Below are positions 5,476 to 32,784 of a DNA stretch of 64,000 nt, one piece after another. The stretch comes from Armatimonadota bacterium (GTDB lineage: Bacteria > Armatimonadota > UBA5829 > DTLH01), in contig JBBRAE010000013.1 in NCBI GenBank assembly GCA_038207085.1, positions 1 through 64,000 on the forward strand, given 5' to 3'. The stretch's first letter is position 1. Each line of letters starts with the position of its first letter. The position numbers and the translations under genes are program-made. The notes beneath the pieces are model-generated. The model worked only from the letters and a program-made list of their open reading frames with translations, searched no databases and had not been told where the DNA came from.

Positions 5476-6270
5476 ATGGCAATCAAGTTAGCGGTTTCTG
5501 GAAAAGGTGGAGTCGGTAAGTCGACGCTCGCGGGGACGCTTGCGCTGCTCTTTGCGGCGGACGGCAACCGTGTGCTCGCGGTAGACGCTGACCCCGATGC
5601 AAACCTGGCATCGGCGCTTGGCATGCCTGAAGATCTCAAATCATCCGTTCGGACAATAGCCCAGGAGAGACAGCTTATCGAGGAACGAACCGGCGCTAAA
5701 GCCGGACAGTTCGGCCAGATATTCTCCATCAACCCCGATGTCTCTGGGATCGCAGAGCAGTATGGAGTGCGGCACCAGGGGGTCGACCTCTTGGTGCTGG
5801 GAGCCGCCCAGCAGGCTGGCGCAGGATGCGCATGTCCTGAGTCGGTGCTGTTGAAGTCGCTTGTTATGGACCTTGTGCTCGGACGCGGTGACGTGCTCGT
5901 GCTTGATATGGAAGCCGGAATCGAGCACCTTGGACGAGGGACAGCCACGGGCGTCGACCTGATGATCGCAGTCGTCGAGCCTGGTCAGCGAAGCTTAGAA
6001 ACAGCCGAGCGCGTGCGAGATATGGCGCGGGGCATCGGCATCAAGCGCATTGCCGTGGTGCTGAACAAATCGATCGATCCCGTAGAAGACCGTGCGTGGC
6101 TTGAGTCGAGCTTTGGATCTGACTCGGTGATTGGGGTGATCCCCTACGACACCAGGGTGATCGCCGCCGACCGCAAATGCTTGTCAATCCTGGATATGGG
6201 TGACGAAGCCCTGCTTTCTCCGTATAGAAAGATATACGAGACTATAAGAGACAACTATCAGAAGTCGTAA
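5476..6270 (+). CDS. cooC: CooC-type nickel-insertion ATPase (CODH maturation)
   Basis: GKGGVGKS, DADPDANL, GCAC Ni-binding motif, DMEAGIEHLGRG. Confidence 0.9.
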   Translation: MAIKLAVSGKGGVGKSTLAGTLALLFAADGNRVLAVDADPDANLASALGMPEDLKSSVRTIAQERQLIEERTGAKAGQFGQIFSINPDVSGIAEQYGVRHQGVDLLVLGAAQQAGAGCACPESVLLKSLVMDLVLGRGDVLVLDMEAGIEHLGRGTATGVDLMIAVVEPGQRSLETAERVRDMARGIGIKRIAVVLNKSIDPVEDRAWLESSFGSDSVIGVIPYDTRVIAADRKCLSILDMGDEALLSPYRKIYETIRDNYQKS

Positions 6271-6321: not shown

Positions 6322-7371
6322 ATGAGTTTCGAGCCCAAATGTATGGCAACAGCCATCGGCAGCCTTCCTCACAGCAATGCTGAGGACGCAATCACGGTAA
6401 TTCTTGCTAGTATCCCCGACGCACCCATCTGGCCGCAGCTTCCTTCAACAGGGATGAACGAGCAGATGGAGGTGCAGTACTCCGAGAACCTTCCCGATGT
6501 CGTCATCGACCGCGAGAAGGAGAGAATGTACATCGACACCACCGACGAGACCTTCGCGGGCATCAGCACCTTCATGGAGAAGTTCGCGATGGACGAGGTG
6601 GACTATTTCGCCATCTCCCCCGAGTTCTCAAAGGGCATCTACGCGATGGAGGCCGCTCTCCAGGCAGCAGGGGCAAGCCGCCCGTTTGTCAAAGTCCAGA
6701 CCACCGGGCCGATCAGCTTCGGTCTGACAATCGTCGACGAGAACAAACGCGCAATCTACTACAACGATATGTTCCGCGATGCGGTCGTCAAAGGCCTCAC
6801 AATGAAGTGCCGCTGGCAGATCCGCAGGTTCAAGTCTTTTGCTGACAACGTGATCTGCTTCATCGACGAGCCGATTCTCTCGGCGTTTGGAAGCTCCACC
6901 TATGTGAGCGTCAACCGTGAGGACGTTGTGTCGATCCTAAGTGAAGTGATCGAAGCGATCCACGCTGAAGGCGCAGTCGCCGGTATCCACTGCTGTGGCA
7001 ACACCGAGTGGTCGATCCTCGTAGACGCGGGCGTTGACATCGTCAACTTCGACGCGTTCGACTACGGCGACACCATCGCACTCTACCCCGAAGCTATGAA
7101 GCGCCACCTTGAGGCTGGTAAGTATCTGGCCTGGGGCGTCATTCCCACAAGCAGCGAGAAGATCCAGAGCCAGACCGTCGAGAGCCTCGTCGCGAAGTTC
7201 GATGCGGGCGTCGACAACCTCGCCAAAGCGACTGGGCTTGACAGAGATATGATCATCAAGCAGGCCTTTATCACCCCGTCCTGCGGCACGGGCTCACTCC
7301 CCGTCGCTGACGCTGAACTCGTCTTCAGCATGCTCGGACAGGTCAGCAAGGCTCTTAGAGAAAGGCAGTAA
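6322..7371 (+). CDS. Core (folate-independent, MetE C-terminal-like) methionine synthase, MesB-like
   Basis: TAIGSLPH, WPQLP, KVQTTGPISF, FIDEP, Zn ligands IHCC and TPSCG; ~350 aa single TIM barrel of the URO-D/MetE superfamily. Confidence 0.72.
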   Translation: MSFEPKCMATAIGSLPHSNAEDAITVILASIPDAPIWPQLPSTGMNEQMEVQYSENLPDVVIDREKERMYIDTTDETFAGISTFMEKFAMDEVDYFAISPEFSKGIYAMEAALQAAGASRPFVKVQTTGPISFGLTIVDENKRAIYYNDMFRDAVVKGLTMKCRWQIRRFKSFADNVICFIDEPILSAFGSSTYVSVNREDVVSILSEVIEAIHAEGAVAGIHCCGNTEWSILVDAGVDIVNFDAFDYGDTIALYPEAMKRHLEAGKYLAWGVIPTSSEKIQSQTVESLVAKFDAGVDNLAKATGLDRDMIIKQAFITPSCGTGSLPVADAELVFSMLGQVSKALRERQ

Positions 7372-7463: not shown

Positions 7464-8228
7464 ATGAGTTTTACAATCGCAGTTACAGGTAAAGGCGGCG
7501 TTGGGAAGACCACTCTTTCTTCGCTTATCGTGCAGTATTTGGTCGCAAACGGGCGAACTCCGGTGCTGGCGGTCGACGCAGATTCCAATGCAAATCTTCA
7601 CGAAGCGCTTGGGGTCGAGTTCAGCGAAAGCGTCGGAGCGATCCGCGAGGACGCGAAGAGCAAAGTGGCTGAGATGTCGGGGATGGGCAAGCAGGAGTTT
7701 CTGGATATGAGAGTCCAGGAAGCGCTTGTCGAGCAGAACGGCTACGATATGATCGTTATGGGACGCCCGGAAGGGCCAGGCTGCTACTGCTATGCTAACA
7801 ACGTGCTCCGCGATGTGATCCAGAAGCTTTCGCAGAACTACAAGTATCTTGTGGTCGACACCGAGGCTGGAATCGAGCACGTTTCGCGGCGCACGCTGAT
7901 CAAGATCGACCTGCTCTGCGTGGTTTCTGACTGCTCAGTGCGCGGAGTTCGCACTGCAAAGCGAATCGCCGACCTCGCCGACGAGATGGGAACGCCTGTC
8001 ACCCGCCGCGGACTGATTGTGAACCGCGTGCCGGGAGGCGTCCTCCCTGAAGGCGTCAAAACCGAGGCCGAGTCTACAGGGCTGCCGCTTCTCGCAGTCA
8101 TCCCGATGGACGAAAACGTTGCTGCGATGGACGCGGGCGGTATGGCGATCGGTGATATCCCTGCTGATTCGCCGACCAGACTTTCTCTCAAAGCGCTCCT
8201 CGATGAGGCGCTCACGGCGGCTGTGTAA
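7464..8228 (+). CDS. CooC/AcsF-type nickel-insertion ATPase (ACS maturation)
   Basis: GKGGVGKT, MGRPEGPGCYC motif, DTEAGIEH. Confidence 0.9.
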   Translation: MSFTIAVTGKGGVGKTTLSSLIVQYLVANGRTPVLAVDADSNANLHEALGVEFSESVGAIREDAKSKVAEMSGMGKQEFLDMRVQEALVEQNGYDMIVMGRPEGPGCYCYANNVLRDVIQKLSQNYKYLVVDTEAGIEHVSRRTLIKIDLLCVVSDCSVRGVRTAKRIADLADEMGTPVTRRGLIVNRVPGGVLPEGVKTEAESTGLPLLAVIPMDENVAAMDAGGMAIGDIPADSPTRLSLKALLDEALTAAV

Positions 8229-8279
8229 CACATTTACCAATTTGCACTTTGTATTTCCCTAACAAGGAGTTCTTTGCCA

Positions 8280-10229
8280 ATGGCAACCGAAATCGAAAAA
8301 CCGAACAACGGCGGTGTATCACGTGACCCGGCCATTAATGAGATGGTCGAAGTCGCAAAAGCCGCGGGTATTGACACAGTCTGGGACCGCCACAAGTCGA
8401 TGGGAGTCCCGTGTAAGCTTGGCTCAACCGGCGTCTGCTGCAAGATCTGCCACATGGGCCCGTGCCGAATCACGCCGAAGTCACCCAAAGGCATCTGCGG
8501 AGCCGACGCGGACACGATCGCCGCGCGCAACCTGCTTCGTGAGATCGCCGCGGGAACAGCCGCGCACTCAGACCACGGGCGCATGCTTGTCAGAACGCTG
8601 AAGCTGGTTTCTGAGGACAAAGGCGGCGACTACAAGATCACCGACCCCGGCAGGCTGCACAACGCGGCACAGTTCTTCGAGATCGAGACCGAAGGCAAGA
8701 CTGATCTGCAAATCGCGGGTGAGCTCGCTGACTTCTTCATGGGACAGTTCGCCTGGAGCGACAAACCGAACAAAACCCTGAAGCGCGCTCCTGAGAAGCG
8801 GCAGGCGGTTTGGAAGAAGCTTGAAATCGAGCCCCACGGCATCGATTCGGCGGTCGTCGAACTGATGCACCGAACGCACATGGGCGTCGACCACGACTAC
8901 AGGCACCTCATTATGGGCGGCCTGAAGTGCAGCATCGCTGACGGCTGGGTCGGTTCGATTATCGCGACTACAGTTTCTGACATTCTCTTCGGAACCCCGA
9001 AACCGCTTAGGAGCAAAGTGAACCTCGGCGTGCTTTCTGAGACCAAGGTCAACATCATCGTCCACGGCCACGAGCCGACTCTCTCTGAGATGCTCGCCTG
9101 GGCGTCAAAAGACAAGGAACTCCTGGACTACGCAAAGAGCAAGGGCGCGGACGGCATCAACATCGCCGGTATCTGCTGCACCGCAAACGAAATCCTGATG
9201 CGCCACGGTCTGCCGATCGCCGGAAACTTCCTCCAGCAGGAGCTTGCGATTCTGACCGGCGCGGTCGAGATGATGATCGTCGACGTTCAGTGCGTTATGC
9301 CGAGCCTTCCTGAAATTATGAAGTGCTTCCACACCAGGCTCGTCAGCACGTCGGAGATCGCCCAGACTTTCAACGCCGAACAGATCACGTTTGAGGTCGA
9401 GAAGGGCTTCGAGCACGCGAAGTCCCTCATTCGTGGGGCGATCGACAACTTCGCCAACCGCAACAAGGCCAAAGTTACAATCCCTGACCACTCGATGGAC
9501 CTGGTAGCCGGGTTCTCCAACGAGACGGTCTTCCATATGCTCGGTGGACGATTCCGGAGCACATTCAGACCGCTGAACGATGCGATCATCGACGGCCGAA
9601 TCAGAGGCGTCGTCGGGATCGTCGGCTGCAGCAACCCCAAGGTGAACACCGACGACCTGCACGTCACGCTGACGTCTGAGCTTATCAAGCGAAACGTGCT
9701 GGTGCTTCAGACCGGATGCTCCGCGATCGCCTGCGCGAAAGCTGGGTTCCTCACCCCTGAAGCCGCACGCGAACTTGCCGGTGAGACGCTTGCCGAGGTC
9801 TGCGAAGCAGTCGGTATTCCGCCTGTGCTGCATATGGGAAGCTGTGTTGATAACAGCCGAATCCTGCTTGCCGCGACAAATGTTTTGATGGAAGGTGGGC
9901 TCGGCGAGGATCTATCCGATCTGCCTGTAGCTGGAGCCGCACCGGAGTGGATGAGCGAGAAGGCGGTCGCGATCGGCCACTATTTCGTCGCTAGCGGACT
10001 CTACGTTGTCCTCGGACAGCCGCTCTATGTGGGGGGCAGCGAGAACGTTACCAAGCTGCTCACAGAGGAGATGGAAGGCCTCACCGGCGGCAAGTTCGCC
10101 TGGGAGCCCGATCCCGTCAAGGCGGCGGACATGATAATGGAGCACATTGAAAAGAAACGCGACGCGCTCGGCATCAACCAGAAACGGGAGCGTAAGCTGC
10201 TTGATATGAAGGAGCGCAGAGAGCTGTAA
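8280..10229 (+). CDS. cooS: Anaerobic Ni-Fe carbon monoxide dehydrogenase catalytic subunit
   Basis: D/B-cluster C..GxxGVCCxxCxMGPC...GICG; C-cluster ligand motifs HGH, GICCT, GCSN, TGCS, HMGSCVDN; WMSEKA; AAGGAG SD. Confidence 0.96.
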   Translation: MATEIEKPNNGGVSRDPAINEMVEVAKAAGIDTVWDRHKSMGVPCKLGSTGVCCKICHMGPCRITPKSPKGICGADADTIAARNLLREIAAGTAAHSDHGRMLVRTLKLVSEDKGGDYKITDPGRLHNAAQFFEIETEGKTDLQIAGELADFFMGQFAWSDKPNKTLKRAPEKRQAVWKKLEIEPHGIDSAVVELMHRTHMGVDHDYRHLIMGGLKCSIADGWVGSIIATTVSDILFGTPKPLRSKVNLGVLSETKVNIIVHGHEPTLSEMLAWASKDKELLDYAKSKGADGINIAGICCTANEILMRHGLPIAGNFLQQELAILTGAVEMMIVDVQCVMPSLPEIMKCFHTRLVSTSEIAQTFNAEQITFEVEKGFEHAKSLIRGAIDNFANRNKAKVTIPDHSMDLVAGFSNETVFHMLGGRFRSTFRPLNDAIIDGRIRGVVGIVGCSNPKVNTDDLHVTLTSELIKRNVLVLQTGCSAIACAKAGFLTPEAARELAGETLAEVCEAVGIPPVLHMGSCVDNSRILLAATNVLMEGGLGEDLSDLPVAGAAPEWMSEKAVAIGHYFVASGLYVVLGQPLYVGGSENVTKLLTEEMEGLTGGKFAWEPDPVKAADMIMEHIEKKRDALGINQKRERKLLDMKERREL

Positions 10230-13200
10230 TGAGTAAGATCATCGCCTCAAGCGCCATAATCGGCGCGCATAAGATATACAAACAAGCCGAGGAGATTGTC
10301 GCAAAGACGATAGCCGAGAAAGGCGCGGATAGCCCGGTAGCGTTCCCTGACACTACCTACTATCTGCCCGTGATCTACTCGATGCTCGGCACCAGGGTGG
10401 AAAAGCTCTCGGACATGCAGTCTGTTCTGGACGAGTGCAAGAGCCTTTTACCTCCGATCCCGTCCGACGACGTTTGGCTCCCCTATCTTGGTGGAACGCT
10501 CGACGCCGGTATGTCGACGCTTTTCGCGTTCGAGCTGATCGAGGCGTGCAAGTATCTGATAGGCCCGAACCCCGTTGATGGAATCTGGCTCGGGGCTGCG
10601 AGTGACGTTATCATCCGCGAGCGTGGAATCGAGTTCGTCGACGGCTCAGCTCCTGGTTTCGCCGCAGTTGTCGGCGCGGCTCCGGACAAAGAGACCGCCG
10701 TCAAGATCGCCCGCGAGCTTCAGGAGAAGAACCTCTACGTCTTCATAGCCGGTAACACCAACGGCGTATCGTTTGCCGAGCAGCTTGTGGAAGCCGGTGT
10801 CCAGATAGGCTGGGACACCAGGCTTGTTCCCTTCGGCAAAGACATATCCGCTGCGATCTATGCGCTCGGGTTTGCGAACCGCGCGGCGCTTTCTTTTGGA
10901 GGCGTTCAGCCCGGTGACTACGCTCGAAATCTGAAATACAACAAAGACCGAATCTTTGCGTTCGTAATGGCGCTTGGCGAGGTCGACGCAGAGAAGTATG
11001 CGGCAGCCGCCGGAGCGATCTCCTACGGCTTCCCAACGATCGCCGACACCGACATCCCGGAGATTCTGCCGACCGGTATCTGCACCTACGAGCACGTAGT
11101 CTCAAACGTTCCGCTTGACCGAATCGTCGAGAAATCGCTTGAAGTGCGCGGCTGCAAGATCAAGATCGCCAAAGTCCCGATCCCCGTAGCTTACGGCGCT
11201 GCCTTTGAGGGTGAGAGAATCCGCAAAGAGCAGACCTACGTCGAGTTCGGCGGAAACAAGACTCACGCGTTTGAGTATGTCACAACCAAAGACCTAACCG
11301 AGGTCGAAGACGGCAAGATCACCGTCGTCGGCCCAGAGATTGACGACGTTCCAGAGGGCACCGCGCTTCCGCTTGCGATTTGGGTGGAAGTTGCAGGCCG
11401 CAAGATGCAGTCGGACTTTGAGTCGATCCTGGAGCGCCAGATCCACCACCTCATAAACGGCGCGGAGGGCGTCTGGCATATGGGCCAGCGCGATATCGTC
11501 TGGACCCGAATCTCAAAAGCCGCCAAGGAGAAGGGCTTCAAGATCGCCCACTATGGCGAGATTTTGCACGCCAAGCTCTTGAACGAATACCCCGCCATCG
11601 TCGACAAGGTTCAGGTGACGCTCTTCACCGACCTGAAAGAAGTCGAGGAGCGAATCATTGAGGCCAGAAGAGTCTACCGCGAGAGGAACCTGCGCGTTGA
11701 GTCGATGACCGACGAGACCGTCGACACGTTTTACTCGTGCCTGCTCTGCCAGAGCTTCGCGCCGAACCACGTATGCGTCATTACACCCGAGCGACTCGGA
11801 CTCTGCGGCGCTTACAACTGGCTCGACGGAAAGGCCGCCTACGAGATCGACCCCACAGGCCCAAACCAGCCGCTCACCAAGGGCGAGTGCATCGACCCCG
11901 TCCGCGGCCAGTGGAAAGACATTAACGATTACGTCTACGCAAACTCCAAGCAGTCGATCACGTGCTTCAACGCCTATTCGATGCTTGAGGACCCGATGAC
12001 GAGCTGTGGCTGCTTCGAGGCTATCGTCGCGCTCCTCCCTGAGTGCAACGGCGTCGCTATCGTCAACCGAGAGTATCCCGGTGACACACCGATGGGTATG
12101 CGGTTCTCCTCGCTTGCTGGTATGACCGGCGGCGGCCAGCAGACTCCGGGATTCATCGGGATTGGCAAGGCGTATATCTCCAGTCGCAAGTTCATCTCCG
12201 CTGAAGGCGGACACAAACGAATCGTCTGGATGCCTGCTGAGCTTAAGGCAAGCCTGAAGGAAGATCTCGCGCACATCGGCGAGCAGCTTGGAATCGAAAA
12301 CTATGCCGACCTTATCGCGGACGAAAACGTCGGGACAGATTCCGCGGCGATCAGCGCACATATGGAAAAGGTTGGCCACCCCGCGCTTTCGATGTGGGAC
12401 GTGACCCAGCCGTCGCCTGAAGCCACCGAGGTCGACGTGAACCGTGGCAAAACCGCTGAAGCTCCTGCAGCACCTGTAGCCGCTGCGACCGCGTCTGCTC
12501 CGGCTCCGGCAAAAGAGACAGCACCAGTCGCAGTCGCCGAAAGGCCTGCGCCCGAGCATGCCAAGATTCCCGCAAACTCGACACCAGTTCACGCAGCACC
12601 TTCAAACGGCGGGAACGGTGGAAACGGTGACGGACTCTCTCATGTGATTTCCGTCATCGAACAAGTGCGTGCCAACGGGCTTCCCACGGCAAACCCGGCA
12701 TCGACTCCCGAGGAGCAGATGGCCGCCCTTCAGATGTCGACCGCTCTAAACTTGCTCACTGCAGGCGCGAATATGCTCCTGATGTATAGCGGTGCGCTCG
12801 GCGTTACGCCCGTAGCGGCGAAAGCTGTTCCATTGCCAGTCGAGACTTCTGTCGAACCAACCCCGGTTGTCGAGACCCAGAAGATATCGGAAGTGCTCGA
12901 AGCACCGCAGAAGCCGATCACATCGGCCAGCATCATCGTGCCGACCAGCTTCGGTGTGCCTGGCGAGGCGTTCGCTGGCACAGTTCGTGAAGTGACGCTC
13001 GGTGGGTCTGGCACGCGGACGTCTTCGGTGACAATCGGCGGCGCAAACGCCCTGCCCTTCCGCCACTTCGAAGGAAACACCGGCCGCAAGCAGGTGATCG
13101 CTATGGAGGTCTTCGACAAAACGCCGAGGAACTATCCCAACTCCCTGCAAGAGGCATTTGGAAGTCTGATAAACGATCCCGCTGCGATGGCTAAATACTG

Positions 13201-13897
13201 CGTTGAGCAGTGCGGCGCTGAGATCATAAGCGTCCGACTTGATGGAACTCATCCCGACAACGGCGATGCATCCATCGAGGCGGCCTCTGAGATCGTCGGA
13301 AAGGTGCTAAAAGCCGTCGGCGTGCCGATCATGGTCACCGGGCCCGGTCACTTCGAGAAGAACAACGCGGTTATGAAGCAGATCGCAAGCGACTTCGCGG
13401 GCGAGAACCTGCTGCTTAACTGGGCTGAAACCGACAACTACAAGACAGTCGCCGCCGCCGCGATGGGCTACAACCACTGCGTAGTCGCCCAGTCGCCAAT
13501 CGACGTCAACATGGCGAAGCAGCTGAATATCCTGATGACCAACATGGGGCTTGCGCCTGAGAAGATCGTCATCGACGCCTATACCGGCGCAATCGGCTAC
13601 GGTCTTGAATATACCTACTCCGTTATGGAGCGAATCAGGGCGTCGGCACTCACAAACGACGCGATGCTTGCGATGCCGATCATCGGCACACCGGGATTTG
13701 AAGTCGCACGCATCAAGGAGAGCAAAGCCCCCGAGAGTGCATTCCCGATCTGGGGAAGCGAGACCGAACGCGGGGCGTTGCTTGAGATATCGACCGCGAT
13801 GAGCCTCCTAAACGCAGGCGCGGACGTTCTGGTGATGTATCACCCCGTAGCCGCCCGCACAGTGAAGCGCAAAATCGCAGAGATGAACGAAAAATAG
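10229..13897 (+). CDS. acsB: Acetyl-CoA synthase (AcsB) fused via an Ala/Pro linker to the CoFeSP small subunit (AcsD)
   Basis: A-cluster FYSCLLCQSFAPNHVC..LGLCG and PMTSCGCFE in aa 1-~730; AcsD-like TIM barrel (IGGANALPF, AMEVFD, SPIDVNMAKQLN, GYGLEYTYSVMERIR) in the last ~310 aa; no intervening stop. Confidence 0.93.
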   Translation: MSKIIASSAIIGAHKIYKQAEEIVAKTIAEKGADSPVAFPDTTYYLPVIYSMLGTRVEKLSDMQSVLDECKSLLPPIPSDDVWLPYLGGTLDAGMSTLFAFELIEACKYLIGPNPVDGIWLGAASDVIIRERGIEFVDGSAPGFAAVVGAAPDKETAVKIARELQEKNLYVFIAGNTNGVSFAEQLVEAGVQIGWDTRLVPFGKDISAAIYALGFANRAALSFGGVQPGDYARNLKYNKDRIFAFVMALGEVDAEKYAAAAGAISYGFPTIADTDIPEILPTGICTYEHVVSNVPLDRIVEKSLEVRGCKIKIAKVPIPVAYGAAFEGERIRKEQTYVEFGGNKTHAFEYVTTKDLTEVEDGKITVVGPEIDDVPEGTALPLAIWVEVAGRKMQSDFESILERQIHHLINGAEGVWHMGQRDIVWTRISKAAKEKGFKIAHYGEILHAKLLNEYPAIVDKVQVTLFTDLKEVEERIIEARRVYRERNLRVESMTDETVDTFYSCLLCQSFAPNHVCVITPERLGLCGAYNWLDGKAAYEIDPTGPNQPLTKGECIDPVRGQWKDINDYVYANSKQSITCFNAYSMLEDPMTSCGCFEAIVALLPECNGVAIVNREYPGDTPMGMRFSSLAGMTGGGQQTPGFIGIGKAYISSRKFISAEGGHKRIVWMPAELKASLKEDLAHIGEQLGIENYADLIADENVGTDSAAISAHMEKVGHPALSMWDVTQPSPEATEVDVNRGKTAEAPAAPVAAATASAPAPAKETAPVAVAERPAPEHAKIPANSTPVHAAPSNGGNGGNGDGLSHVISVIEQVRANGLPTANPASTPEEQMAALQMSTALNLLTAGANMLLMYSGALGVTPVAAKAVPLPVETSVEPTPVVETQKISEVLEAPQKPITSASIIVPTSFGVPGEAFAGTVREVTLGGSGTRTSSVTIGGANALPFRHFEGNTGRKQVIAMEVFDKTPRNYPNSLQEAFGSLINDPAAMAKYCVEQCGAEIISVRLDGTHPDNGDASIEAASEIVGKVLKAVGVPIMVTGPGHFEKNNAVMKQIASDFAGENLLLNWAETDNYKTVAAAAMGYNHCVVAQSPIDVNMAKQLNILMTNMGLAPEKIVIDAYTGAIGYGLEYTYSVMERIRASALTNDAMLAMPIIGTPGFEVARIKESKAPESAFPIWGSETERGALLEISTAMSLLNAGADVLVMYHPVAARTVKRKIAEMNEK

Positions 13898-13898
13898 G

Positions 13899-13988
13899 GT
13901 AGCTATTAGTAGTTAGCTGTTAGCAACCAAACTCGCACCAGCATGACAATCTGGTTGCTAACGGCTAATAGCTAGCTGCTAGCTGCTC
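13899..13988. repeat. Inverted heptamer-repeat hairpin
   Basis: tagctat-tagtagt-tagctgt-tagcaac ... gctaacg-gctaata-gctagct-gctagct; shares gttagcaacca..caatctg..tgctaa with 7372-7460. Confidence 0.75.
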
Positions 13989-14001
13989 CCAAGGAGTTGA
14001 A

Positions 14002-15342
14002 ATGGCACTTTCAGGCTTAGATATATTCAAACTGTTACCGAAAACCAACTGCGGCGAGTGCGGCGTGCCTACATGCATGGCATTCGCGATGAAGCTTGCA
14101 TCGAAGGGCGCGGAACTTGCTGCTTGTCCGTATGCGTCCGATGAGGCAAAATCCAAGCTCGGAGCCGCGAGCAAGCCGCCGATCAGGCTCGTCAAGGTCG
14201 GCACTGGCGACACAGAAGTTCAGGTCGGCAACGAAACCGTGATGTTCAGGCACGAGAAGACGTTCGTCCACCCGACGGCTATCGCTATATCGTTCACCGA
14301 CGACCAGGCCGGGGACGTGCTCGCCCATCAGACCGCTGTCGTTCGCGACTACTGCCTTGAGCGAGTCGGCGAGGAATTGAAGATCGACCTCGCGGTTGTC
14401 GACAATGTCACGGGCGAGGCGGAACCTTTCGTCGCCGCAGTCAAGGAAGTCGCGGGGACGACCGGCAAGGCGATCGTTCTGCAGAGCTCTTACCCCGAGG
14501 TGATCGAGGCGGCTCTTCAGGCCATTCCGGGGCAGCGACCGCTCATCCACGCAGCGACACCCGAAAACATCGACGCAATGGCCGCGCTTGCGCTCAAATA
14601 CAACGCGCCCATCGTCGCCAGAGCCAACACGCTCGACGAACTTGCCGCGCTTACTACAAAGCTTGCGGCGCTTGGCGTTCAGGATATTGTGCTCGATATC
14701 CCGGCTGACAACCCGGCCGCTATGATGCAGTATAATACAATCATCAGGAAAGCCGCTCTGAAGGGCAGCGTTGAGCCGATGGGCTACCCGGTGATGAACT
14801 TCCTTATGGGAATGGACCTGCCGTCGCTCGTCGCAGACGCATCGACGCTCATAAGCAAGTATTCATCGATCCTCGTTATCGACACGATAGCCCTCCAGGC
14901 ACTGCTTCCGATGATGATGCTCAGACAGAACATCTACACCGACCCGCAGAAACCAATTCAGGTTGAGCCGAAGATCTATCCCATCGGCGAGGCAACAGAG
15001 AACTCACCGATCCTTGTGACGACGAACTTCTCGCTCACGTATTTTATTGTGTCGGGTGAGATCGAGAACTCTGGCGTCCCGGCGCACCTCGCGATTGTCG
15101 AATGCGAAGGAATGAGCGTCCTTACGGCATGGGCTGCCGGCAAGTTCTCCGGTGAGAAGATCGGCGCATTCATCAAGCAGTCAGGCCTTGAAGACCAGGT
15201 TAAGACCAGAAAGTTGATCATACCTGGATACGTCGCACAGATCAGCGGCGAACTTGAGGAATCACTCCCAGGCTGGGAGATCCTCGTCGGCCCGCAGGAA
15301 GCAAGTGACCTCGGCGCGTATATGAAGATGCACGCGGCATAG
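14002..15342 (+). CDS. acsC: Corrinoid iron-sulfur protein large subunit (AcsC/CdhE)
   Basis: KTNCGECGxPTCMAFA...CPY [4Fe-4S], RQNIYTDPQKP, TTNFSLTY, SVLTAWAAGKF; AAGGAG SD. Confidence 0.95.
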   Translation: MALSGLDIFKLLPKTNCGECGVPTCMAFAMKLASKGAELAACPYASDEAKSKLGAASKPPIRLVKVGTGDTEVQVGNETVMFRHEKTFVHPTAIAISFTDDQAGDVLAHQTAVVRDYCLERVGEELKIDLAVVDNVTGEAEPFVAAVKEVAGTTGKAIVLQSSYPEVIEAALQAIPGQRPLIHAATPENIDAMAALALKYNAPIVARANTLDELAALTTKLAALGVQDIVLDIPADNPAAMMQYNTIIRKAALKGSVEPMGYPVMNFLMGMDLPSLVADASTLISKYSSILVIDTIALQALLPMMMLRQNIYTDPQKPIQVEPKIYPIGEATENSPILVTTNFSLTYFIVSGEIENSGVPAHLAIVECEGMSVLTAWAAGKFSGEKIGAFIKQSGLEDQVKTRKLIIPGYVAQISGELEESLPGWEILVGPQEASDLGAYMKMHAA

Positions 15343-15455
15343 CCCGGTTTATTCGTGAAGCGAATAAAGTTTTCGCTAACCCGGTTTATTCGTGAAGCGA
15401 ATAAAGCTCTTGCTAAGAGAGCATCATTCACGTTTCTCGTGAATAATGCGGGCTA
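15340..15455. repeat. MITE/REP-like element, family C (tagcccg...cgggcta)
   Basis: Internal hairpins tttattcg..cgaataaa and gcatNattcacg..cgtgaataatgc; 37-bp internal tandem duplication; second copy at 39572-39650. Confidence 0.85.
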
Positions 15456-15505
15456 ACAGATGTTGGCTTGTAGCTCATCGACCTGTGGTCGCAACTCATA
15501 AACTT

Positions 15506-17419
15506 ATGTATTCGATACAATTCTTACCTGCTGATATAGAGCTAAAGGTCCAACCCGGCACACTGGTCTCCGACGCCGCCATCATGGCCGGCCTCGAAGA
15601 CCTGCACCTGCCGTGCGGTGGCAAAGGCACGTGTGGGCGCTGCCTTGTTGAAGTTGTATCCGGCAATCCTATACAGACCTCTACCGCGCGCTTGGACGTC
15701 GCGCTTGCTGGTAAGCGGCTCGTTATGGCCTGCCAGACCAAGGTGAACGAAGACCTTGTAATCAGGATCCCCGAGCAACGGGAGACTGCGATGAGAGTAG
15801 TCGGCGACAGCCATTTTCTCGTCGGGGAAGAGTATCTGCCCGATCGCAGCGCGCTTTCGTCACTCTATCGAATAGAGAAGCTCACGGTACCTCCAGCTAC
15901 AATCGAAGAACACTACAGCGACTGGCAAAGGCTTGTCCGAGAGATCGGCGCAAGGATCGGGTCGAGCAACGTCACTACCGACGTATGGGTTCTGCGTTCG
16001 CTCGCCGATGCTCTTCGCGCCAAGGATGGGAAAGTCACCGTCGTTCTTCAGGAGGACGACTGCGGGTACCGCCTCTGGAACGTCAACGCAGGTCACAGCC
16101 CTGTCACCGTGTACGGGCTTGCAATAGACATAGGCACCACGACTATCGCGGTGCAGCTAGTCGATCTGAGCACCGGCGAAGTCGCCGCAAGCCGAACACT
16201 TTATAACGCGCAAATAGGTCGCGGCGCGGACGTTATTAGTCGGATCGATTATGCAAAGAACCCCGTTCGCCTGTTCGAGCTTCGCGAACTTGTTCTCGGC
16301 ACAATCAACGAACTGATTGAAGGCGTCGCGGAGGAAGTCGGGCTCCCGCCTGTGGAGATTCGAGCTGCGTTCATCGCCGGGAATACGACGATGGTGCACC
16401 TGCTCCTCGCGCTCCCACCCAAGCATATTCGCGAGACACCCTACGTTCCGACGGTGAACACCATCCCCACCCTTTTTGCGCCAGACGTTGGGCTTCGTAT
16501 CCACTCCCAGGCCGCGATCGCCTTTGCGCCCGGAGTCGGAAGCTACGTTGGCGGCGACATCACTTCGGGGCTTCTCTGCACTGAGATCCCAAAAAACCAC
16601 GACGAGGTCTTTTTGTTCCTCGACATCGGCACCAACGGCGAGATTGTGCTTGGAAACGCCGACTGGATGGTAGCCTGCGCCTGCTCCGCTGGCCCAGCCT
16701 TTGAAGGCAGCGGAATCAAGTGCGGTATGCGCGCGACAACAGGGGCGATCGAGTATATCGAAATATCTGACGATAAACGCGAAGTTCGCTATGATGTGAT
16801 CGGCGAAACCAAACCGGCGGGCATTTGCGGCTCCGGCCTCATCTGCCTGCTCGGCGAGTTGCTGGTAAGGGGCGTGATAGACCAGTCGGGACGCTTCAAC
16901 ATCAATCTCGACACCGACCGCATCATCACGCAGGGGTCGAACAAGGCGTTCGTCATTGAGTGGGCTGAAAACACCGAAAGCGGCGAGAACCTGGTCATCA
17001 CAGAGCCAGATATGGAGAACCTGATGCGCACCAAGGCCGCAATTTACGGCGCGTGCAGCCTCATTCTGACAAACGTGGGGATCGAATGGAACGCCATATC
17101 GCGAATCTACATCGCAGGCGGTTTTGGCAGATACATTCAGATAGAAGACGCCGTGCTAATCGGCCTTCTTCCCGATTTACCCTACGACAGGTTCACTTAC
17201 ATCGGCAACTCATCGCTTACCGGAGCTTATATCGCCCTGCTTTCTCGCGACCACAGGCAGTTGCTGAACGAGATCGCAGGCATGATGACCTATATCGATC
17301 TTAGCAGCGATTCGCACTACATGGACGCTTATATCAGCGCGCTTTTCCTGCCACACACTGATATGTCGCAGTTTCCATCGGTCGCAAAGCGCCTTACCGA
17401 TTTGAAATCTACAACCTAA
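15506..17419 (+). CDS. acsV: Corrinoid reductive activator (RACo/AcsV; 2Fe-2S + ASKHA ATPase)
   Basis: PCGGKGTCGRC ferredoxin, DIGTTT, GADVISRI, YVGGDI, DIGTNGE, SAGPAFEG, GICGSG; ATG 15506 chosen because the upstream ATG lies inside a repeat. Confidence 0.9.
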   Translation: MYSIQFLPADIELKVQPGTLVSDAAIMAGLEDLHLPCGGKGTCGRCLVEVVSGNPIQTSTARLDVALAGKRLVMACQTKVNEDLVIRIPEQRETAMRVVGDSHFLVGEEYLPDRSALSSLYRIEKLTVPPATIEEHYSDWQRLVREIGARIGSSNVTTDVWVLRSLADALRAKDGKVTVVLQEDDCGYRLWNVNAGHSPVTVYGLAIDIGTTTIAVQLVDLSTGEVAASRTLYNAQIGRGADVISRIDYAKNPVRLFELRELVLGTINELIEGVAEEVGLPPVEIRAAFIAGNTTMVHLLLALPPKHIRETPYVPTVNTIPTLFAPDVGLRIHSQAAIAFAPGVGSYVGGDITSGLLCTEIPKNHDEVFLFLDIGTNGEIVLGNADWMVACACSAGPAFEGSGIKCGMRATTGAIEYIEISDDKREVRYDVIGETKPAGICGSGLICLLGELLVRGVIDQSGRFNINLDTDRIITQGSNKAFVIEWAENTESGENLVITEPDMENLMRTKAAIYGACSLILTNVGIEWNAISRIYIAGGFGRYIQIEDAVLIGLLPDLPYDRFTYIGNSSLTGAYIALLSRDHRQLLNEIAGMMTYIDLSSDSHYMDAYISALFLPHTDMSQFPSVAKRLTDLKSTT

Positions 17420-17449: not shown

Positions 17450-18364
17450 TTGAAAAGCATTCTTGAAAGAGTCGCCGCTGGAGAAGTTCTTATCTCCGAC
17501 GGCGCGATGGGAACATTTCTGCAGGCCAAGGGTCTGCAGCCGGGCGAGTGCCCCGAGTCCTGGTGCGTGCTGCGCCCTGAGGACGTGAAAAGCGTAGCCG
17601 ATGCATACGTCGCGGCTGGCTGCGATATGATCGAAACCGACAGCTTCGGCGGCACCTGCTACAAGCTGCGCGAGTATGGGCTTGAGGACAAGGTTGCCGA
17701 CTACAATCGTGCCGCTGCACAGATTGCGAAGTCTTCTATCGGCGACAAGGGCTACGTGATTGCGTCGATCGGCCCCACGGGTCAGATCGTAGAGGACGAA
17801 GGCGGTATGGTCACCCCTGAAGGCCTTTACAACGCCTTCAAAGAGCAGGCTGTTGCGCTTGAAGAAGGTGGAGCAGACGCACTCTGCCTCGAAACGATGT
17901 CGAGCGTCACCGAGGCCGTACAGGCCATCAAAGCCGCGAAAGAGAACACGAAGCTACCCGTGATCTGCACGTTCACCTTCGAGCCGGGAGCCCGCGGGTT
18001 CCGCACGATGATGGGAACCGACCCAGCGACAGCCGTAACTGCTGCAGTTGAGGCGGGAGCTGATGTCGTCGGAGCAAACTGCGGAAACGGCATCGACAAC
18101 ATGATCCAGATCACCAAGGATATGCGCGCGGCCGTCCCGAACACTCCTATACTCATCCACGCCAACGCCGGAATGCCTGTATTTGAAGACGGCAAGACCC
18201 TGTTCAAAGACACTCCCGAGCAGATGGCAGGAAAGGTCCAGGAGCTAGTCGCCGCCGGTGCGAATATCATCGGTGGATGCTGTGGCACCAACCCCAACCA
18301 CATCGCCGCAATGGCCGAAGCCGCACGTGGCAACGGTGGCTGCGGTTGCTGCTGTAATCACTAA
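17450..18364 (+). CDS. Stand-alone homocysteine S-methyltransferase domain (MetH N-terminal/BHMT family)
   Basis: SDGAMGT, SIGPTG, ETMS, GANCG, IIGGCCGT Zn ligands; no pterin or cobalamin domain; GGAGG SD; C-terminal GCGCCCNH. Confidence 0.9.
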   Translation: MKSILERVAAGEVLISDGAMGTFLQAKGLQPGECPESWCVLRPEDVKSVADAYVAAGCDMIETDSFGGTCYKLREYGLEDKVADYNRAAAQIAKSSIGDKGYVIASIGPTGQIVEDEGGMVTPEGLYNAFKEQAVALEEGGADALCLETMSSVTEAVQAIKAAKENTKLPVICTFTFEPGARGFRTMMGTDPATAVTAAVEAGADVVGANCGNGIDNMIQITKDMRAAVPNTPILIHANAGMPVFEDGKTLFKDTPEQMAGKVQELVAAGANIIGGCCGTNPNHIAAMAEAARGNGGCGCCCNH

Positions 18365-18372
18365 TTACCTTG

Positions 18373-18399
18373 TGGAGGTGGGTAATCAGCCCACCTCCA
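18373..18399. terminator. Hairpin between convergent genes (putative terminator)
   Basis: tggaggtggg-taatcag-cccacctcca 10-bp stem directly after the stop. Confidence 0.6.
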
Positions 18400-20960: not shown

Positions 20961-21032
20961 GGTTCAGAGTGGAGATTTCAGAGTGCAGAGCAGGGAAATG
21001 ACTCCCGTCGCTCTGCACTCTGAACTCTGAAC
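20961..21032. repeat. Inverted heptamer-repeat hairpin (ttcagag / ctctgaa)
   Basis: ttcagagtgcagagc ... gctctgcactctgaactctgaac. Confidence 0.7.
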
Positions 21033-22825
21033 TATAGCGCCCAGGGGTGGGTGATTTTCGGGGTATTGGCGTAGCGTTTCATAGAGACGACTAGCCGCTG
21101 TCCCGCGCCGGGGGCGATCTTCACGGTAAACGTCCTGCCGTTCACGGGAACGCTCTTGCCGCCATCGGGCTTGACTGAGAGTATCTGGTGTTCACCATAA
21201 GCGCCGCCCTGGACGATGACAGTATGCTCTTTGCCGCTGCTGGTGTTTACGAGCACGAGCGTCGCAGAGTCGTCGGCAAGCTTCTCAACAAGTGCAGCGC
21301 AGTCCTCGCTTATGCCGGGACGCTTGCGCTCGGGGTCCAGGTAGAAGAATCTGGTTATGAGAAGCTGACCCTGCCATCGGGGCATGACTCCTCCAGTCAT
21401 CGCGTTCACGAGCGACCCGCAAGCACCGCCGCTGGGCGAACTGGGTAGCTCGGGGTCGACACCTTTCGCAGCGGCTTGCTTTACGAGCTCAAAGCTTGAT
21501 TTGGCCTGCTCTAGCTGCTTAGTGATATACTCGACAGGCCAAGTGGGATTCTTGCCTTGAAGATATGCGAACCACTCGGCTTCGTGTCCAGCTTCAAAGT
21601 CGTCGCTATAGGTGGTCGCGCCGGTAAGCATTGAGCGCTCGTTAATGCGATCAAGATCGGCCTGTTTCATGCTGGCGAGATAGGTGTTGGCAAGTATCGT
21701 GGAGTAGAGCCCGCCGTGCTTGAAGTCGCCCCAAGTGTAGTCGTTGAACCCGGCTGCGTTGATGCCGCCCGGAACGCCCAGCACAGTTCCGTTGTCATCG
21801 ATATACCGATGCTTCCAGAGCGTGTCCCCAAGCATTCGCCAGTTGTCGTAGTAGCTTGTGTCGCCCGTCAAGAGGAGACCGTTGGACCAGCCGGCGTTCG
21901 GGCCGGAGAGCACGACCAGCAGCCCGCCGAAGCGCGCGGTAGGGCGGTCCCAACCGAGGATGCCAGCCCACCAGTCCTCGGGAATAGAGCCGTCCCGGTT
22001 TACGTTGGTAGGCATTATGCCGCCGTTTGCCTTGCAGCGATCGCGCCACGCGTTGACATAGTCGACGGTCATCGTCCGGTAGTGTTCGTCGCCTGTGAGC
22101 AGGAACGCGTTTGTGGTAAGGCAGGTATAGATTAGGCTTGCAGGGCCTTCATATGCGTAGTCGGTGTCAGGGAGCCAGAAGTTGGTGACTTTCGGGTCGA
22201 ACTGCTCCTTCTTCTCAACTGCTCCTCGACCACCCGACAAGATGCTCTTCATCGTTTTGGTCTTGGGGTCATAGTTCTGAACGAGCGTGCCCTGACCATC
22301 GTAGAACGAGGCGAACTTGAGCGCGAGCCGTCGGTACTCGGGGTCGTCGGACATTGCAAGCGCCGACATGAAGAATCCCTCGTAGCCCTGGCCCATGTGG
22401 TTTGCGTCGTGGCAGGTGAGAAACTCGTTGGTGCAGAACCCCTGCTCGGTCATCTGATCGAGTCCCGCACGCCAAACTCTCCACCACTGGTCTTTGATCG
22501 ATGAGTCCCCGCCGAGCGCGTAGATGAGCGGCCACTTATACATCAAGGTGAACACCCCGTGCGGGTGCTGCGCGTTCTTGCCCTGGGTGTCGTATTTGCC
22601 CCTGACATACCCATTGGGAAGCGTGAAAGTCTTGGCGTTAAGCTCTATCACTTTGGCGTTGATATCGAGCAGTTCCCGCTCTTTCAGCGCCCACTCAGGG
22701 GCAGGCATCGGGCTTGAGATCGATACTATGGGTGTCATAGGCCTTTCAACCCCTGCCTGGGAAGCCGCACAGGACATCCCTGATATTACGGCTAATCCAG
22801 TCATTACCAGCTTGGATACACTCAT
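21032..22825 (-). CDS. Secreted hypothetical protein, paralog B
   Basis: Signal-peptide-like N-terminus; shares many blocks with the 22856-24643 protein (YRRLALKFASFYDG, NYDP, GAYGEHQ). Confidence 0.8.
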   Translation of the reverse strand: MSVSKLVMTGLAVISGMSCAASQAGVERPMTPIVSISSPMPAPEWALKERELLDINAKVIELNAKTFTLPNGYVRGKYDTQGKNAQHPHGVFTLMYKWPLIYALGGDSSIKDQWWRVWRAGLDQMTEQGFCTNEFLTCHDANHMGQGYEGFFMSALAMSDDPEYRRLALKFASFYDGQGTLVQNYDPKTKTMKSILSGGRGAVEKKEQFDPKVTNFWLPDTDYAYEGPASLIYTCLTTNAFLLTGDEHYRTMTVDYVNAWRDRCKANGGIMPTNVNRDGSIPEDWWAGILGWDRPTARFGGLLVVLSGPNAGWSNGLLLTGDTSYYDNWRMLGDTLWKHRYIDDNGTVLGVPGGINAAGFNDYTWGDFKHGGLYSTILANTYLASMKQADLDRINERSMLTGATTYSDDFEAGHEAEWFAYLQGKNPTWPVEYITKQLEQAKSSFELVKQAAAKGVDPELPSSPSGGACGSLVNAMTGGVMPRWQGQLLITRFFYLDPERKRPGISEDCAALVEKLADDSATLVLVNTSSGKEHTVIVQGGAYGEHQILSVKPDGGKSVPVNGRTFTVKIAPGAGQRLVVSMKRYANTPKITHPWAL

Positions 22826-22855
22826 TCGAACAGAACCCACCTTTCAGCTCGAAGC

Positions 22856-26516: not shown

Positions 26517-26529
26517 TTGTCCGCCCAGT

Positions 26530-28047
<1,518 letters not shown>

Positions 28048-28051
28048 ATCC

Positions 28052-30172: not shown

Positions 30173-30215
30173 ATTCTGTCCTTATAGCGACAACGGCGTA
30201 AGAGCTGAAACTCCA

Positions 30216-31084: not shown

Positions 31085-31087
31085 ATC

Positions 31088-31612: not shown

Positions 31613-31616
31613 AATC

Positions 31617-32678: not shown

Positions 32679-32784
32679 ACTTGTGATAGCACCGCCGACC
32701 TTTGGGGTTACGTGCGTAGTTTGTTCACGCACCCTGACGGCACAAAGCTTATGAAGTCTTAAGCATCCCCTAGCCGCCATACCT

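Follow-up and report, generated by a model that had tools for sequence, protein, structure and literature searches.

In the bacterial CODH/ACS systems of Moorella thermoacetica, Carboxydothermus hydrogenoformans and Clostridium autoethanogenum, acetyl-CoA synthase (ACS, AcsB) is a three-domain protein, and in the solved bacterial systems AcsB and AcsD, the small subunit of CoFeSP, are separate chains. The bacterial CODH/ACS and CoFeSP structures used here for reference were PDB 1mjg, 1oao, 7zkj, 4djd, 2h9a and 9fzy; in the solved CoFeSPs, AcsD is free-standing and ∼310–325 aa long. In archaeal ACDS (CdhABCDE), an N-terminal helix of CdhD forms a hexa- to octameric coiled coil, according to a preprint (PMC13370988) which, in the part available to us, describes bacterial AcsD as lacking the N-terminal region and makes no mention of AcsB–AcsD fusions. 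In Dehalococcoides, which has AcsB and CoFeSP without AcsE and lacks CODH, CoFeSP has been hypothesised to pass methyl groups directly to a MetE-like homocysteine methyltransferase, the core-MetE being encoded in another operon (Deobald et al., 2020, PMC7005905, in the sections available).

The window, the whole 64-kb stretch of DNA that was analysed, carries AcsB and AcsD in one chain. A single uninterrupted ORF, acsBD (10229..13897 on the forward strand, as are all features below), comprises 1222 codons plus stop, has a predicted product of 133 kDa and contains four Pfam domains in the order CODH_A_N (21–110), CdhC (318–472), ACS_CODH_B_C (483–723) and CdhD (921–1156). Its ATG overlaps the stop codon of the preceding CODH gene (TAATG). 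Judged from its sequence, acsBD encodes AcsB, with its Ni-Ni-[4Fe-4S] A-cluster, and the CoFeSP small subunit in one polypeptide, through a 174-residue joint with a conserved hairpin.

The AcsB part (10229..12418, residues 1–730) can be assigned as a bacterial three-domain acetyl-CoA synthase. Residues 13–723 aligned end to end with the PDB sequences of the AcsB chains 1mjg_M and 7zkj_B (E about 1e-210), alignments to PDB AcsB starting at residue 13–17 and extending to 723, and the score against NF040764 (1061.8 bits) is above the curated equivalog cut-off of 800. The A1 domain (helical CODH_A_N plus Rossmann) is present, with PF18537 at 21–110. The sequence-only reading had claimed complete A-cluster motifs, and this was borne out: C504, C507, C516 and C526, together with C593-G594-C595, are all present and are invariant in 28/28 aligned homologues. 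Presumably the four cysteines hold the [4Fe-4S] cluster and, with the Cys-Gly-Cys motif, make up the A-cluster ligands. SCLLCQSFAP, HVC, GLCGA and MTSCGCFEAI are identical to those of Carboxydothermus ACS (7zkj_B), with substitutions in between, and identical A-cluster motifs are likewise shared with the Moorella and Clostridium enzymes.

The AcsD part (12941..13894, residues 905–1222, 318 aa) forms the C-terminal domain of the 1222-aa protein and, as also claimed from the sequence, is a full domain, spanning a complete CdhD-family TIM barrel. Residues 908–1218 aligned with the PDB sequences of the AcsD chains 4djd_D, 2h9a_B and 9fzy_E, covering residues 21–316 of the 323 in 4djd_D (E 4.9e-84); identity to the bacterial AcsD barrel is 41–45%. 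In Foldseek, the AlphaFold2 model of the domain matched 4djd_D and 2h9a_B with target-normalised TM-scores of 0.92–0.94 and an rmsd of 2.0–2.3. Its score was above the cut-off of NF003376 (384.5 bits, cut-off 280) but below that of the Wood-Ljungdahl-specific AcsD model NF040759 (281.3 bits, cut-off 430), and the domain is accordingly a delta subunit, though outside the narrowly defined acetogen type. The barrel is free of cofactor, the corrinoid domain being located on the separately encoded AcsC. No second AcsD ORF was seen in the 64-kb window or in related loci, which makes the fused AcsD the sole AcsD of the operon.

All 120 of the best database relatives share the AcsB–AcsD layout, several of them on contigs of 2.8–8.2 Mb. 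A scan of species genomes found AcsB and AcsD in one ORF at 72 of the best 80 loci, from 14 named phyla, and at 7 of the 8 remaining loci the contig ends before AcsD could appear. The fusion identified from the sequence is therefore real, and an assembly or frameshift artefact joining two separate genes, for which we found no support, is refuted for practical purposes. At one related locus, L062, the gene is split over several frames, which indicates that this gene family is not free of sequencing errors; against an artefact, however, stand the in-frame layout in these relatives, which come from independent sources, the even GC content across the AcsB/AcsD junction (0.58–0.62) and the retention of the linker element in frame among homologues.

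The sequence-only reading described AcsB and AcsD as normally separate polypeptides. Their fusion is not unusual. At least 1581 protein clusters (90% identity) are long proteins with an AcsD domain (E ≤ 1e-10), ACS Pfam domains were also found in 120/120 of the AcsD-bearing long proteins listed, and together with the counts above this means that the fusion is common, not rare. The sequence-only reading had allowed that the architecture might prove common and already characterised; the first is the case, whereas a full-text literature search found no paper describing an AcsB–AcsD fusion. We conclude that the fusion is common in genomes but apparently unstudied. Seven short AcsD-only proteins lie on contigs of >100 kb (P0293, P0304, P0323, P0326, P0333, P0336 and P0341); they could represent relatives in which the two genes are truly split, or errors of gene calling.

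The surrounding genes resemble those of bacterial CODH/ACS, with a CooS-type CODH and AcsC, RACo and CooC partners. The operon order is cooC, a MetE-like gene, cooC, CODH, acsBD, acsC, RACo and a MetH-type homocysteine methyltransferase gene, and its conservation was assessed in the 35 related loci whose flanks extend for 7 kb or more in both directions (full-flank loci). The first gene (5476..6270; Pfam CbiA/ParA/Fer4_NifH) encodes a CooC-like Ni-insertion ATPase with a homologue in 32/35 full-flank loci, and a second CooC-like ATPase (7464..8228; CbiA/AAA_31) is found in 33/35. The CODH catalytic subunit (8274..10229; Prismane, E 5e-174) is of the CooS/AcsA Ni-CODH type, scoring 696 bits against TIGR01702 (CooS type, cut-off 478) and only 100.7 bits against the cdhA model TIGR00314 (cut-off 781.3). 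Unlike in archaeal ACDS, CdhB is lacking. Downstream of acsBD, acsC is a separate gene, as the earlier reading had it (14002..15342), for the CoFeSP large subunit (4Fe-4S, TIM barrel, corrinoid; Pfam FeS and CdhD; NF003195, 565.8 bits, cut-off 306), and it adjoins the fusion in 35/35 full-flank loci. It is followed by the gene for the CoFeSP reductive activator RACo/AcsV (15446..17419; Fer2, RACo_linker, Raco_middle and RACo_C_ter), which scores 620 bits against NF040756, under the cut-off of 800, and is present in 33/35 full-flank loci. Operon synteny is kept across phyla, and the fused state is maintained down to ∼55% AcsB identity. In our reading, the operon that contains acsBD is of a conserved type that spreads by horizontal transfer.

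The inter-domain stretch of 174 aa (residues 731–904) had been read as an Ala/Pro linker similar to the arm of pyruvate dehydrogenase E2, a description that holds for its first part only. Spacer 1 (12419..12616, residues 731–796, 66 aa) is Ala/Pro/Glu-rich (30% A and 15% P, 45% together), variable in length and sequence with no conservation among aligned homologues, and predicted to be disordered, with an AlphaFold2 pLDDT of <50 at residues 740–757 and 762–799. It is followed by a conserved element of 71 aa (12617..12829, residues 797–867), predicted to form a two-helix hairpin with helices at 802–816 and 827–853 (pLDDT 84–89). Spacer 2 (12830..12940, residues 868–904, 37 aa) is variable and rich in Pro/Val/Glu/Thr; pLDDT in this region is <50 at 858–866, 871–876 and 879–885, and 52–67 up to about residue 913. 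In the E2 arms of 2-oxo-acid dehydrogenases, a lipoyl group is covalently attached to a small domain. Spacer 1 shares with these arms an Ala/Pro-rich, predicted-disordered segment joining folded domains; here, in contrast, the mobile corrinoid is carried by AcsC, a separate protein bound to the tethered AcsD, and the linker contains a conserved folded insert of other origin.

That insert is a collapsed internal copy of the AcsD C-terminus (residues 1120–1212). Compared with the AcsD domain, it gave a Smith-Waterman score of 90 (z 12.6), which 0/2000 shuffles reached, and an hhalign probability of 93% (E 4.7e-8, 72 columns). It is kept in 25/28 aligned homologues, and few parts of the linker are as well conserved as its block at ∼801–857, while the flanking spacers diverge freely; L834, Q835, A839, L843, A845–N848 and L850 are invariant or nearly so in 51 sequences. 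In a tree built from fused AcsB only, the hairpin-bearing clade was monophyletic (17 rows, support 99). The hairpin is absent in 3/28 close homologues (P0077, P0079 and P0087), and linkers are short or helix-free at 3/72 loci (L059, 53 aa; L067, 46 aa; L072), so that some fusions, at least, can do without a structured element. In most other phyla the linker has another conserved helix, amphipathic and ∼40 aa long, which is present at 42/72 fused loci and conserved across at least ten phyla; several of 13 unclassified linkers look, by eye, like degenerate versions of it. No similarity between this helix and the hairpin of the window's clade was detected with hhalign (E 0.52). A flexible leash with a structured piece in it is thus a design that recurs.

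The nature of the linker bears on whether the chain stays intact. Its long, disordered Ala/Pro spacers could be accessible to a protease, so that a single translated chain would be cut at the spacers to give ordinary AcsB and AcsD. We regard such a polyprotein as highly improbable, since comparison of related loci revealed no conserved protease gene in the operon, and the linker has conserved structured elements but no conserved cleavage motif.

We consider it probable that acsBD is instead a covalent tether, holding CoFeSP at ACS on a partly structured leash in a fixed 1:1 ratio, with the hairpin as a docking or self-association module. Its likeliest function is to set the stoichiometry and to concentrate CoFeSP locally, and a covalent ACS–CoFeSP tether is a fair reading because the fusion is genuine, the sole AcsD is fused, AcsC is adjacent and spacer 1 is Ala/Pro-rich and predicted to be disordered. 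By analogy with the solved systems, A1 would anchor the AcsB part to the CODH dimer, and the AcsD barrel would bind corrinoid-carrying AcsC; CoFeSP would then have a covalent link to ACS, in a constant ratio. The two disordered spacers would give the leash its reach, allowing CoFeSP still to swing among the A-cluster, the RACo activator and the enzymes that donate or accept methyl groups. The tether would raise the concentration of methyl-CoFeSP close to ACS; that this makes methyl transfer faster is purely what we infer. The hairpin, a partial duplication of the AcsD C-terminal helices, is under purifying selection and most likely acts in docking or self-association.

The same observations could be explained by a fusion that is neutral or merely regulatory, ensuring only co-translation and equal amounts, with the linker element a leftover of duplication that has no docking role. 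Adjacent operon partners often fuse, the element can still be recognised as what remains of a stretch of AcsD, and the close relatives and loci lacking a structured element fit this view. We nevertheless think this quite unlikely: the ∼801–857 block is well conserved beside freely diverging spacers, at least ten phyla have conserved an unrelated helix in its position, and the fused state is retained at ∼55% AcsB identity.

A more ambitious proposal, which is compatible with the covalent tether but goes beyond it, is that the linker helices self-associate and gather several CODH/AcsBD/AcsC units around a CoFeSP hub, giving an ACDS-like supercomplex, which in the sequence-only reading would also channel methyl groups. 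As far as the available part of the preprint describes archaeal ACDS, both systems have, directly before the CdhD/AcsD barrel, a structured helical element amid disordered sequence, and share the idea that flexible tethers keep ACS and CoFeSP locally concentrated. The hydrophobic two-helix hairpin of the window's clade sits where archaeal CdhD has its oligomerising extension, as does the ∼40-aa helix of the other phyla, and the CdhD coiled coil offers a precedent (PMC13370988, in the same part). The archaeal tether described there is, however, non-covalent and its CdhC lacks A1, whereas acsBD is covalent and has retained A1. With A1 kept and a CODH of the CooS type, a stable CODH/ACS core is expected without a scaffold. 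Comparison of the linker elements with the N-termini of 15 archaeal-type CdhD proteins revealed no homology (hhalign E 0.92 for the hairpin, 0.62 for the other-phyla helix), the two bacterial elements are dissimilar to each other, and some fusions have no linker helix at all. An analogous oligomerising role of the linker element may exist despite the lack of homology to CdhD, but we judge a supercomplex of this kind unlikely.

The operon differs from that of bacterial CODH/ACS in its methyltransferase genes: no AcsE (PF00809) was seen in it, and a MetE-like gene and a gene for a MetH homocysteine-binding domain are present instead. The MetE-like gene (6322..7371) encodes X349, a protein of the MetE/URO-D/MtaA fold, which occurs in 33/35 full-flank loci. 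Its AlphaFold2 model (pLDDT 93.5) matched best URO-D, the M. mazei MtaA-like 4ay7 and the C-terminal barrels of MetE (E 8e-9 to 2e-6); MetE chains, the top Foldseek matches, gave E 7.8e-9 and a query-normalised TM-score of ∼0.6. The nearest ESM Atlas clusters are annotated 'Methionine synthase family protein' (score 0.97). Membership of the core-MetE family was considered and rejected: X349 had no Pfam match and scored 32 bits (E 6.8e-8) against NCBIfam PRK00957 'methionine synthase', which has a cut-off of 258, making it a distant relative only. Among its homologues HCCGN is present in 61/62 and PSCGTG in 62/62, and we take these to match the His-x-Cys ... Cys zinc motif of MetE. X349 is a putative Zn-dependent corrinoid:thiol methyltransferase.

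The last gene (17450..18364) encodes a MetH-type homocysteine-binding-domain methyltransferase (PF02574) that matched Pfam S-methyl_trans (E 1.3e-68) over profile positions 1–282 of 283. It carries NCG and GGCCG motifs, the latter present in 39/40 homologues, and a homologue is found in 28/35 full-flank loci. A terminator-like hairpin with an 11-bp stem (18373..18399), identified by a consensus scan only, marks the end of the operon. In contrast to Dehalococcoides, as described in the sections of the report available to us (PMC7005905), CODH is present here and the methyltransferase genes lie within the operon.

A MetE-fold gene and a MetH homocysteine-domain gene are thus physically linked to CoFeSP. 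A further proposal, tentative and in our view rather doubtful, is that AcsBD represents a distinct, widely transferred operon type in which tethered CoFeSP would trade methyl groups directly with two zinc-thiol methyltransferases, X349 and the MetH-type protein, replacing or supplementing folate-dependent AcsE, while the linker helices, as sites of docking or oligomerisation, would organise these partners into an ACDS-like assembly. If true, this would constitute a short circuit linking acetyl-CoA with methionine or methyl-sulfur compounds.

A single open frame on the + strand at 10229-13897 encodes a protein of 1222 aa, here called AcsBD. Pfam assigned it three ACS families, CODH_A_N (residues 21-110), CdhC (318-472) and ACS_CODH_B_C (483-723), followed by CdhD (921-1156). 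Among PDB sequences, AcsB from Moorella, Carboxydothermus and C. autoethanogenum matched residues 13-723 end to end (E ~1e-210), while the small subunit of CoFeSP (chains 4djd_D, 2h9a_B and 9fzy_E) matched residues 908-1218. The cysteines that we take to be the A-cluster ligands (C504, C507, C516, C526 and C593-G-C595) were all present and were invariant in 28/28 homologues, and their motifs aligned with the equivalent motifs in 7zkj_B. In an AlphaFold2 model of residues 724-1222, the AcsD barrel had a pLDDT >90, and superposition of the AcsD part on solved AcsD structures gave target TM-scores of 0.92-0.94. The acsC gene (14002-15342) lies 3' of acsBD as a gene of its own. As the open frame, the domains, the A-cluster motifs, the AcsD model and the separate acsC all agree, the sequence-only reading was correct in seeing a complete AcsB and a complete AcsD in one polypeptide. 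In characterised bacterial CODH/ACS systems AcsB and AcsD are separate chains (PDB entries), whereas here they form one; AcsBD is a new form of this well-known enzyme system, apparently uncharacterised.

An assembly artefact joining acsB to acsD was ruled out by conservation of the fusion across genomes; GC content is also even on either side of the junction. In a collection of 5.8 billion proteins, the best 120/120 matches had the ACS-plus-CdhD architecture, and 119 of them contained all four Pfam families. These relatives are 1108-1340 aa long and 67-78% identical where the BLASTP alignment covers the whole query, and several of the contigs that encode them measure 2.8-8.2 Mb. Scanning GTDB species, each represented by one genome, yielded 574 relatives, of which the best 80 were kept, a ranking biased toward fused forms because the query is itself fused. 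Local HMMs of both halves found AcsB and AcsD in a single open frame at 72 of these 80 loci. At seven of the remaining eight, the contig breaks off short of where AcsD would lie. At the eighth (L062, Acidobacteriaceae, 9934-13712) the fused gene is split over at least four frames, as a pseudogene or through assembly indel errors. A search with the AcsD part among proteins of 672-2139 aa returned 1581 clusters (E <= 1e-10), and ACS domains were also present in 120/120 of those listed. We conclude that the AcsB-AcsD fusion is real, old and common. Its earlier framing as rare was wrong, since the architecture is widespread.

Among the matches listed for short proteins (120 of 4160), most of those above ~59% identity were cut-off fragments on contigs of 1-4 kb, and seven short proteins on contigs >100 kb may be either split forms or gene-calling artefacts. 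A library of 50%-identity representatives is uninformative on the breadth of the fusion because the family collapses at that identity; only three long representatives with a C-terminal AcsD were listed, two of which (P0126 and P0140) are AcsB-AcsD fusions. The third, P0160 (1038 aa), by eye has a methylene-tetrahydrofolate-reductase-like (MetF) N-terminus and a coiled-coil or TPR-like region before AcsD. Other AcsD fusions were seen (P0160, P0145, P0148 and P0137), several proteins of 520-1120 aa having an N-terminal AcsD plus further sequence.

The titles of the 72 fused loci cover at least 14 named phyla: Acidobacteriota (12), Spirochaetota (10), Lentisphaerota and Thermodesulfobacteriota (8 each), Bacillota and Planctomycetota (6 each), Verrucomicrobiota, Fibrobacterota and Synergistota (3 each), Armatimonadota and Bacteroidota (2 each), and Methylomirabilota, Hydrogenedentota, Latescibacterota and Sumerlaeota (1 each); five carry no phylum name. 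A FastTree phylogeny of the AcsB part combined the window with 67 loci and two fused but distant representatives; five 5'-truncated loci were omitted. The window clustered with loci labelled Armatimonadota. Elsewhere phyla were intermixed, Treponema for example falling within a Bacillota/Synergistota group, a pattern that fits horizontal spread of the operon. The tree is silent on the number of fusion origins because every AcsB in it is fused.

The inter-domain linker (residues 731-904, 174 aa) consists of three parts. Spacer 1 (731-796) is 30% alanine and 15% proline, variable in length and sequence, and modelled with pLDDT <50. It is followed by an element (797-867) that is conserved in 25/28 aligned homologues and has predicted helices at 802-816 and 827-853 (pLDDT 84-89). 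Spacer 2 (868-904) is P/V/E/T-rich, variable and of low model confidence. The description of the linker as an Ala/Pro swinging arm therefore holds for spacer 1 and fails for the rest. A CxxC motif (e.g. CPTCFPT, CSHCLPT) occurs in spacer 2 of an Acidobacteriaceae/Korobacteraceae subgroup (loci L007-L011 and L015; proteins P0097-P0119) and not in the window's protein; this motif could give the tether a metal or redox site.

The conserved element resembles the C-terminal region of AcsD. Residues 797-815 aligned with AcsD residues 1120-1138 (score 44, z 6.3), residues 829-854 plus 861-867 with 1180-1205 plus 1206-1212 (score 75, z 10.5), and the full collinear alignment scored 90 (z 12.6); each score was reached by 0/2000 shuffles. 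Profile-profile comparison gave a probability of 93% (E 4.7e-8) over 72 columns. The element showed no similarity to AcsC (z -0.1) or AcsB (z -1.0). These alignments indicate that it is a collapsed internal copy of the AcsD C-terminal region. In the AcsB tree, element-bearing sequences form a single clade (17 rows, support 99). Because the element is confined to one clade and is similar to the AcsD C-terminus, we conclude that a single partial duplication carried the 3' end of the AcsD coding sequence into the linker, and that constraint has maintained it since. It is missing from the close relatives P0077, P0079 and P0087, where it was lost or never present. The predicted helices form a hairpin whose hydrophobic, conserved character argues that it binds, either to further copies of itself or to a docking partner.

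Linkers in other phyla are built differently. At 42 of the 72 fused loci (among L018-L079) the linker is shorter, 92-191 aa with a median of 107, and carries a different conserved amphipathic helix with the consensus ..TkEIV.dIIgTLSeKFLG. By eye, degenerate versions of this helix are present in several of 13 unclassified linkers. L078, the locus sister to the window's clade, has a seemingly divergent hairpin, and the Syntrophaceae loci L059, L067 and L072 have a low-complexity linker of 46-126 aa without the helix. The hairpin, the other-phyla helix and the N-terminal extensions of archaeal CdhD occupy a like place; a structured piece in a floppy leash, placed directly before the AcsD/CdhD barrel, thus recurs. 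Homology between these pieces was rejected: hhalign gave E 0.52 for hairpin against helix and, with the extensions of 15 archaeal-type CdhD proteins as the comparison set, E 0.62 for the helix and E 0.92 for the hairpin. Homology of the helix to the AcsD C-terminus was likewise rejected (E 0.69). As far as sequence comparison goes, structured linker pieces were apparently invented more than once.

In the window, acsBD is preceded by cooC (5476-6270), a gene for a 349-aa protein, X349 (6322-7371, + strand), a second cooC (7464-8228) and CODH (8274-10229). Downstream of acsC come RACo (15446-17419), a PF02574 methyltransferase gene (17450-18364, + strand) and a terminator-like hairpin (18373-18399). 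This gene set recurs across phyla. At the 35 loci flanked by 7 kb or more on each side, homologues were found of AcsC (35/35), CODH (34/35), X349, cooC2 and RACo (33/35 each), cooC1 (32/35) and the PF02574 protein (28/35), while the genes flanking the operon vary between genomes. Between acsBD and acsC, a 104-nt gap (13898-14001) contains an 11-bp inverted repeat (GTTAGCAACCA ... TGGTTGCTAAC) beside repeated TAGCT-like words, which may form an mRNA stem-loop between the CoFeSP subunit genes. Rfam gave 0 matches in the window, whether to riboswitches or to other families, and a promoter scan of the window did not exceed shuffles (4 found, mean 5.4). Further downstream, two adjacent ORFs of 602 aa and 595 aa on the - strand (21032-22840 and 22856-24643), with no Pfam match at E <= 1e-5, sit between obgE and a partial complex I set (nuoH to nuoN-like, 24960-32813).

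X349 had no Pfam match; its fold was predicted confidently (pLDDT 93.5) and is most like MetE C-terminal barrels, URO-D and an MtaA-like methyltransferase. The motifs HCCGN and PSCGTG are conserved, and the protein lies beside CODH/ACS across phyla at 52-81% identity. X349 is a candidate, from its modelled fold, for a corrinoid:thiol methyltransferase acting on CoFeSP. The protein encoded at 17450-18364 spans the entire homocysteine-binding-domain profile PF02574 and retains the zinc cysteines of its NCG and GGCCG motifs. It is a stand-alone MetH-type homocysteine-binding domain, encoded last in the operon; in most phyla its gene lies upstream of X349, and in the window's clade downstream of RACo. 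A Cys-rich C-terminal tail, GGCGCCCNH, is found in the window's protein and in 0/40 homologues. Among the 42 window ORFs scanned there was no pterin-binding AcsE (PF00809), nor were fhs, folD or metF seen. Similarly, PF00809 was absent from 84 flank ORFs at 12 representative loci (L005, L007, L019, L025, L029, L030, L032, L056, L068, L070, L074 and L076), the 84 remaining from 111 unassigned ORFs once short or overlapping ones had been dropped. DUF3786 lies next to the cluster at 4/12 of these loci and URO-D-family genes at 3/12. AcsE could be encoded elsewhere in acsBD-carrying genomes. The apparent lack of AcsE together with two thiol methyltransferases prompts the question of where the methyl group comes from or goes to in these organisms. 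For Dehalococcoides, Deobald et al. (2020, PMC7005905) hypothesised that CoFeSP hands its methyl group directly to a core-MetE, and the window's operon, with X349 and the PF02574 gene, is a genomic counterpart to that idea.

One chain thus holds a complete ACS together with the sole AcsD of the operon, always with AcsC adjoining (35/35 loci), and its connecting segment comprises two predicted-disordered spacers and a conserved, predicted-helical insert. If AcsBD behaves like characterised CODH/ACS and CoFeSP, its A1 domain would hold the chain on the CODH dimer and its AcsD barrel would bind AcsC, so that each ACS would have one CoFeSP tied to it (1:1). The ~100 disordered residues would let CoFeSP reach the A-cluster, RACo and the methyltransferase(s), and the gain would be a raised local concentration and a fixed stoichiometry. 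Assembly of these parts into a megacomplex like ACDS, as proposed in the sequence-only reading, is possible.

Full-text literature searches returned no description of an AcsB-AcsD fusion, an earlier mention in Adam et al. (2018, PNAS) being possible. Where they matched PMC4320612, PMC12743542, PMC5736913, PMC6344411 and PMC3315566, 'fused' refers to other things; fused CODHs are listed in Supplementary Table 1 of PMC6344411. According to a 2026 preprint on archaeal ACDS (PMC13370988), the complex is scaffolded by an N-terminal coiled coil of CdhD, a region that bacterial AcsD lacks; AcsB-AcsD fusions go unmentioned in its section on ACS phylogeny. AcsBD is a bacterial counterpart of the tether-based organisation lately proposed for ACDS. 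Both halves are already named in some JGI annotations (P0273, P0278 and P0279), while NCBI names only 'subunit alpha/beta'. This naming hides the AcsD part, so pathway-completeness calls could wrongly report AcsD missing. A 318-aa NCBI protein (P0316, 'subunit delta', labelled Acidobacteria, on a 16,392-base contig) is possibly the same record as locus L006, whose contig is equally long and which has one continuous 1295-aa fusion ORF. If so, annotation pipelines may split or truncate fusions, distorting calls of AcsD presence and absence.

Of all steps in the Wood-Ljungdahl pathway, the passage of the methyl group between CoFeSP and ACS is understood least, owing to the short life of their complex; a natural covalent fusion of the two provides a ready-made system for trapping and imaging it. 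The points of most note are the AcsD-derived hairpin conserved within the tether and an operon with thiol methyltransferases and no visible AcsE. The fusion has carriers in Armatimonadota, Acidobacteriota, the PVC group, Spirochaetota, Syntrophales, Synergistota, Bacillota and others. A single compact type of CODH/ACS operon is common to many uncultured lineages of soil, peat, sediment and gut.
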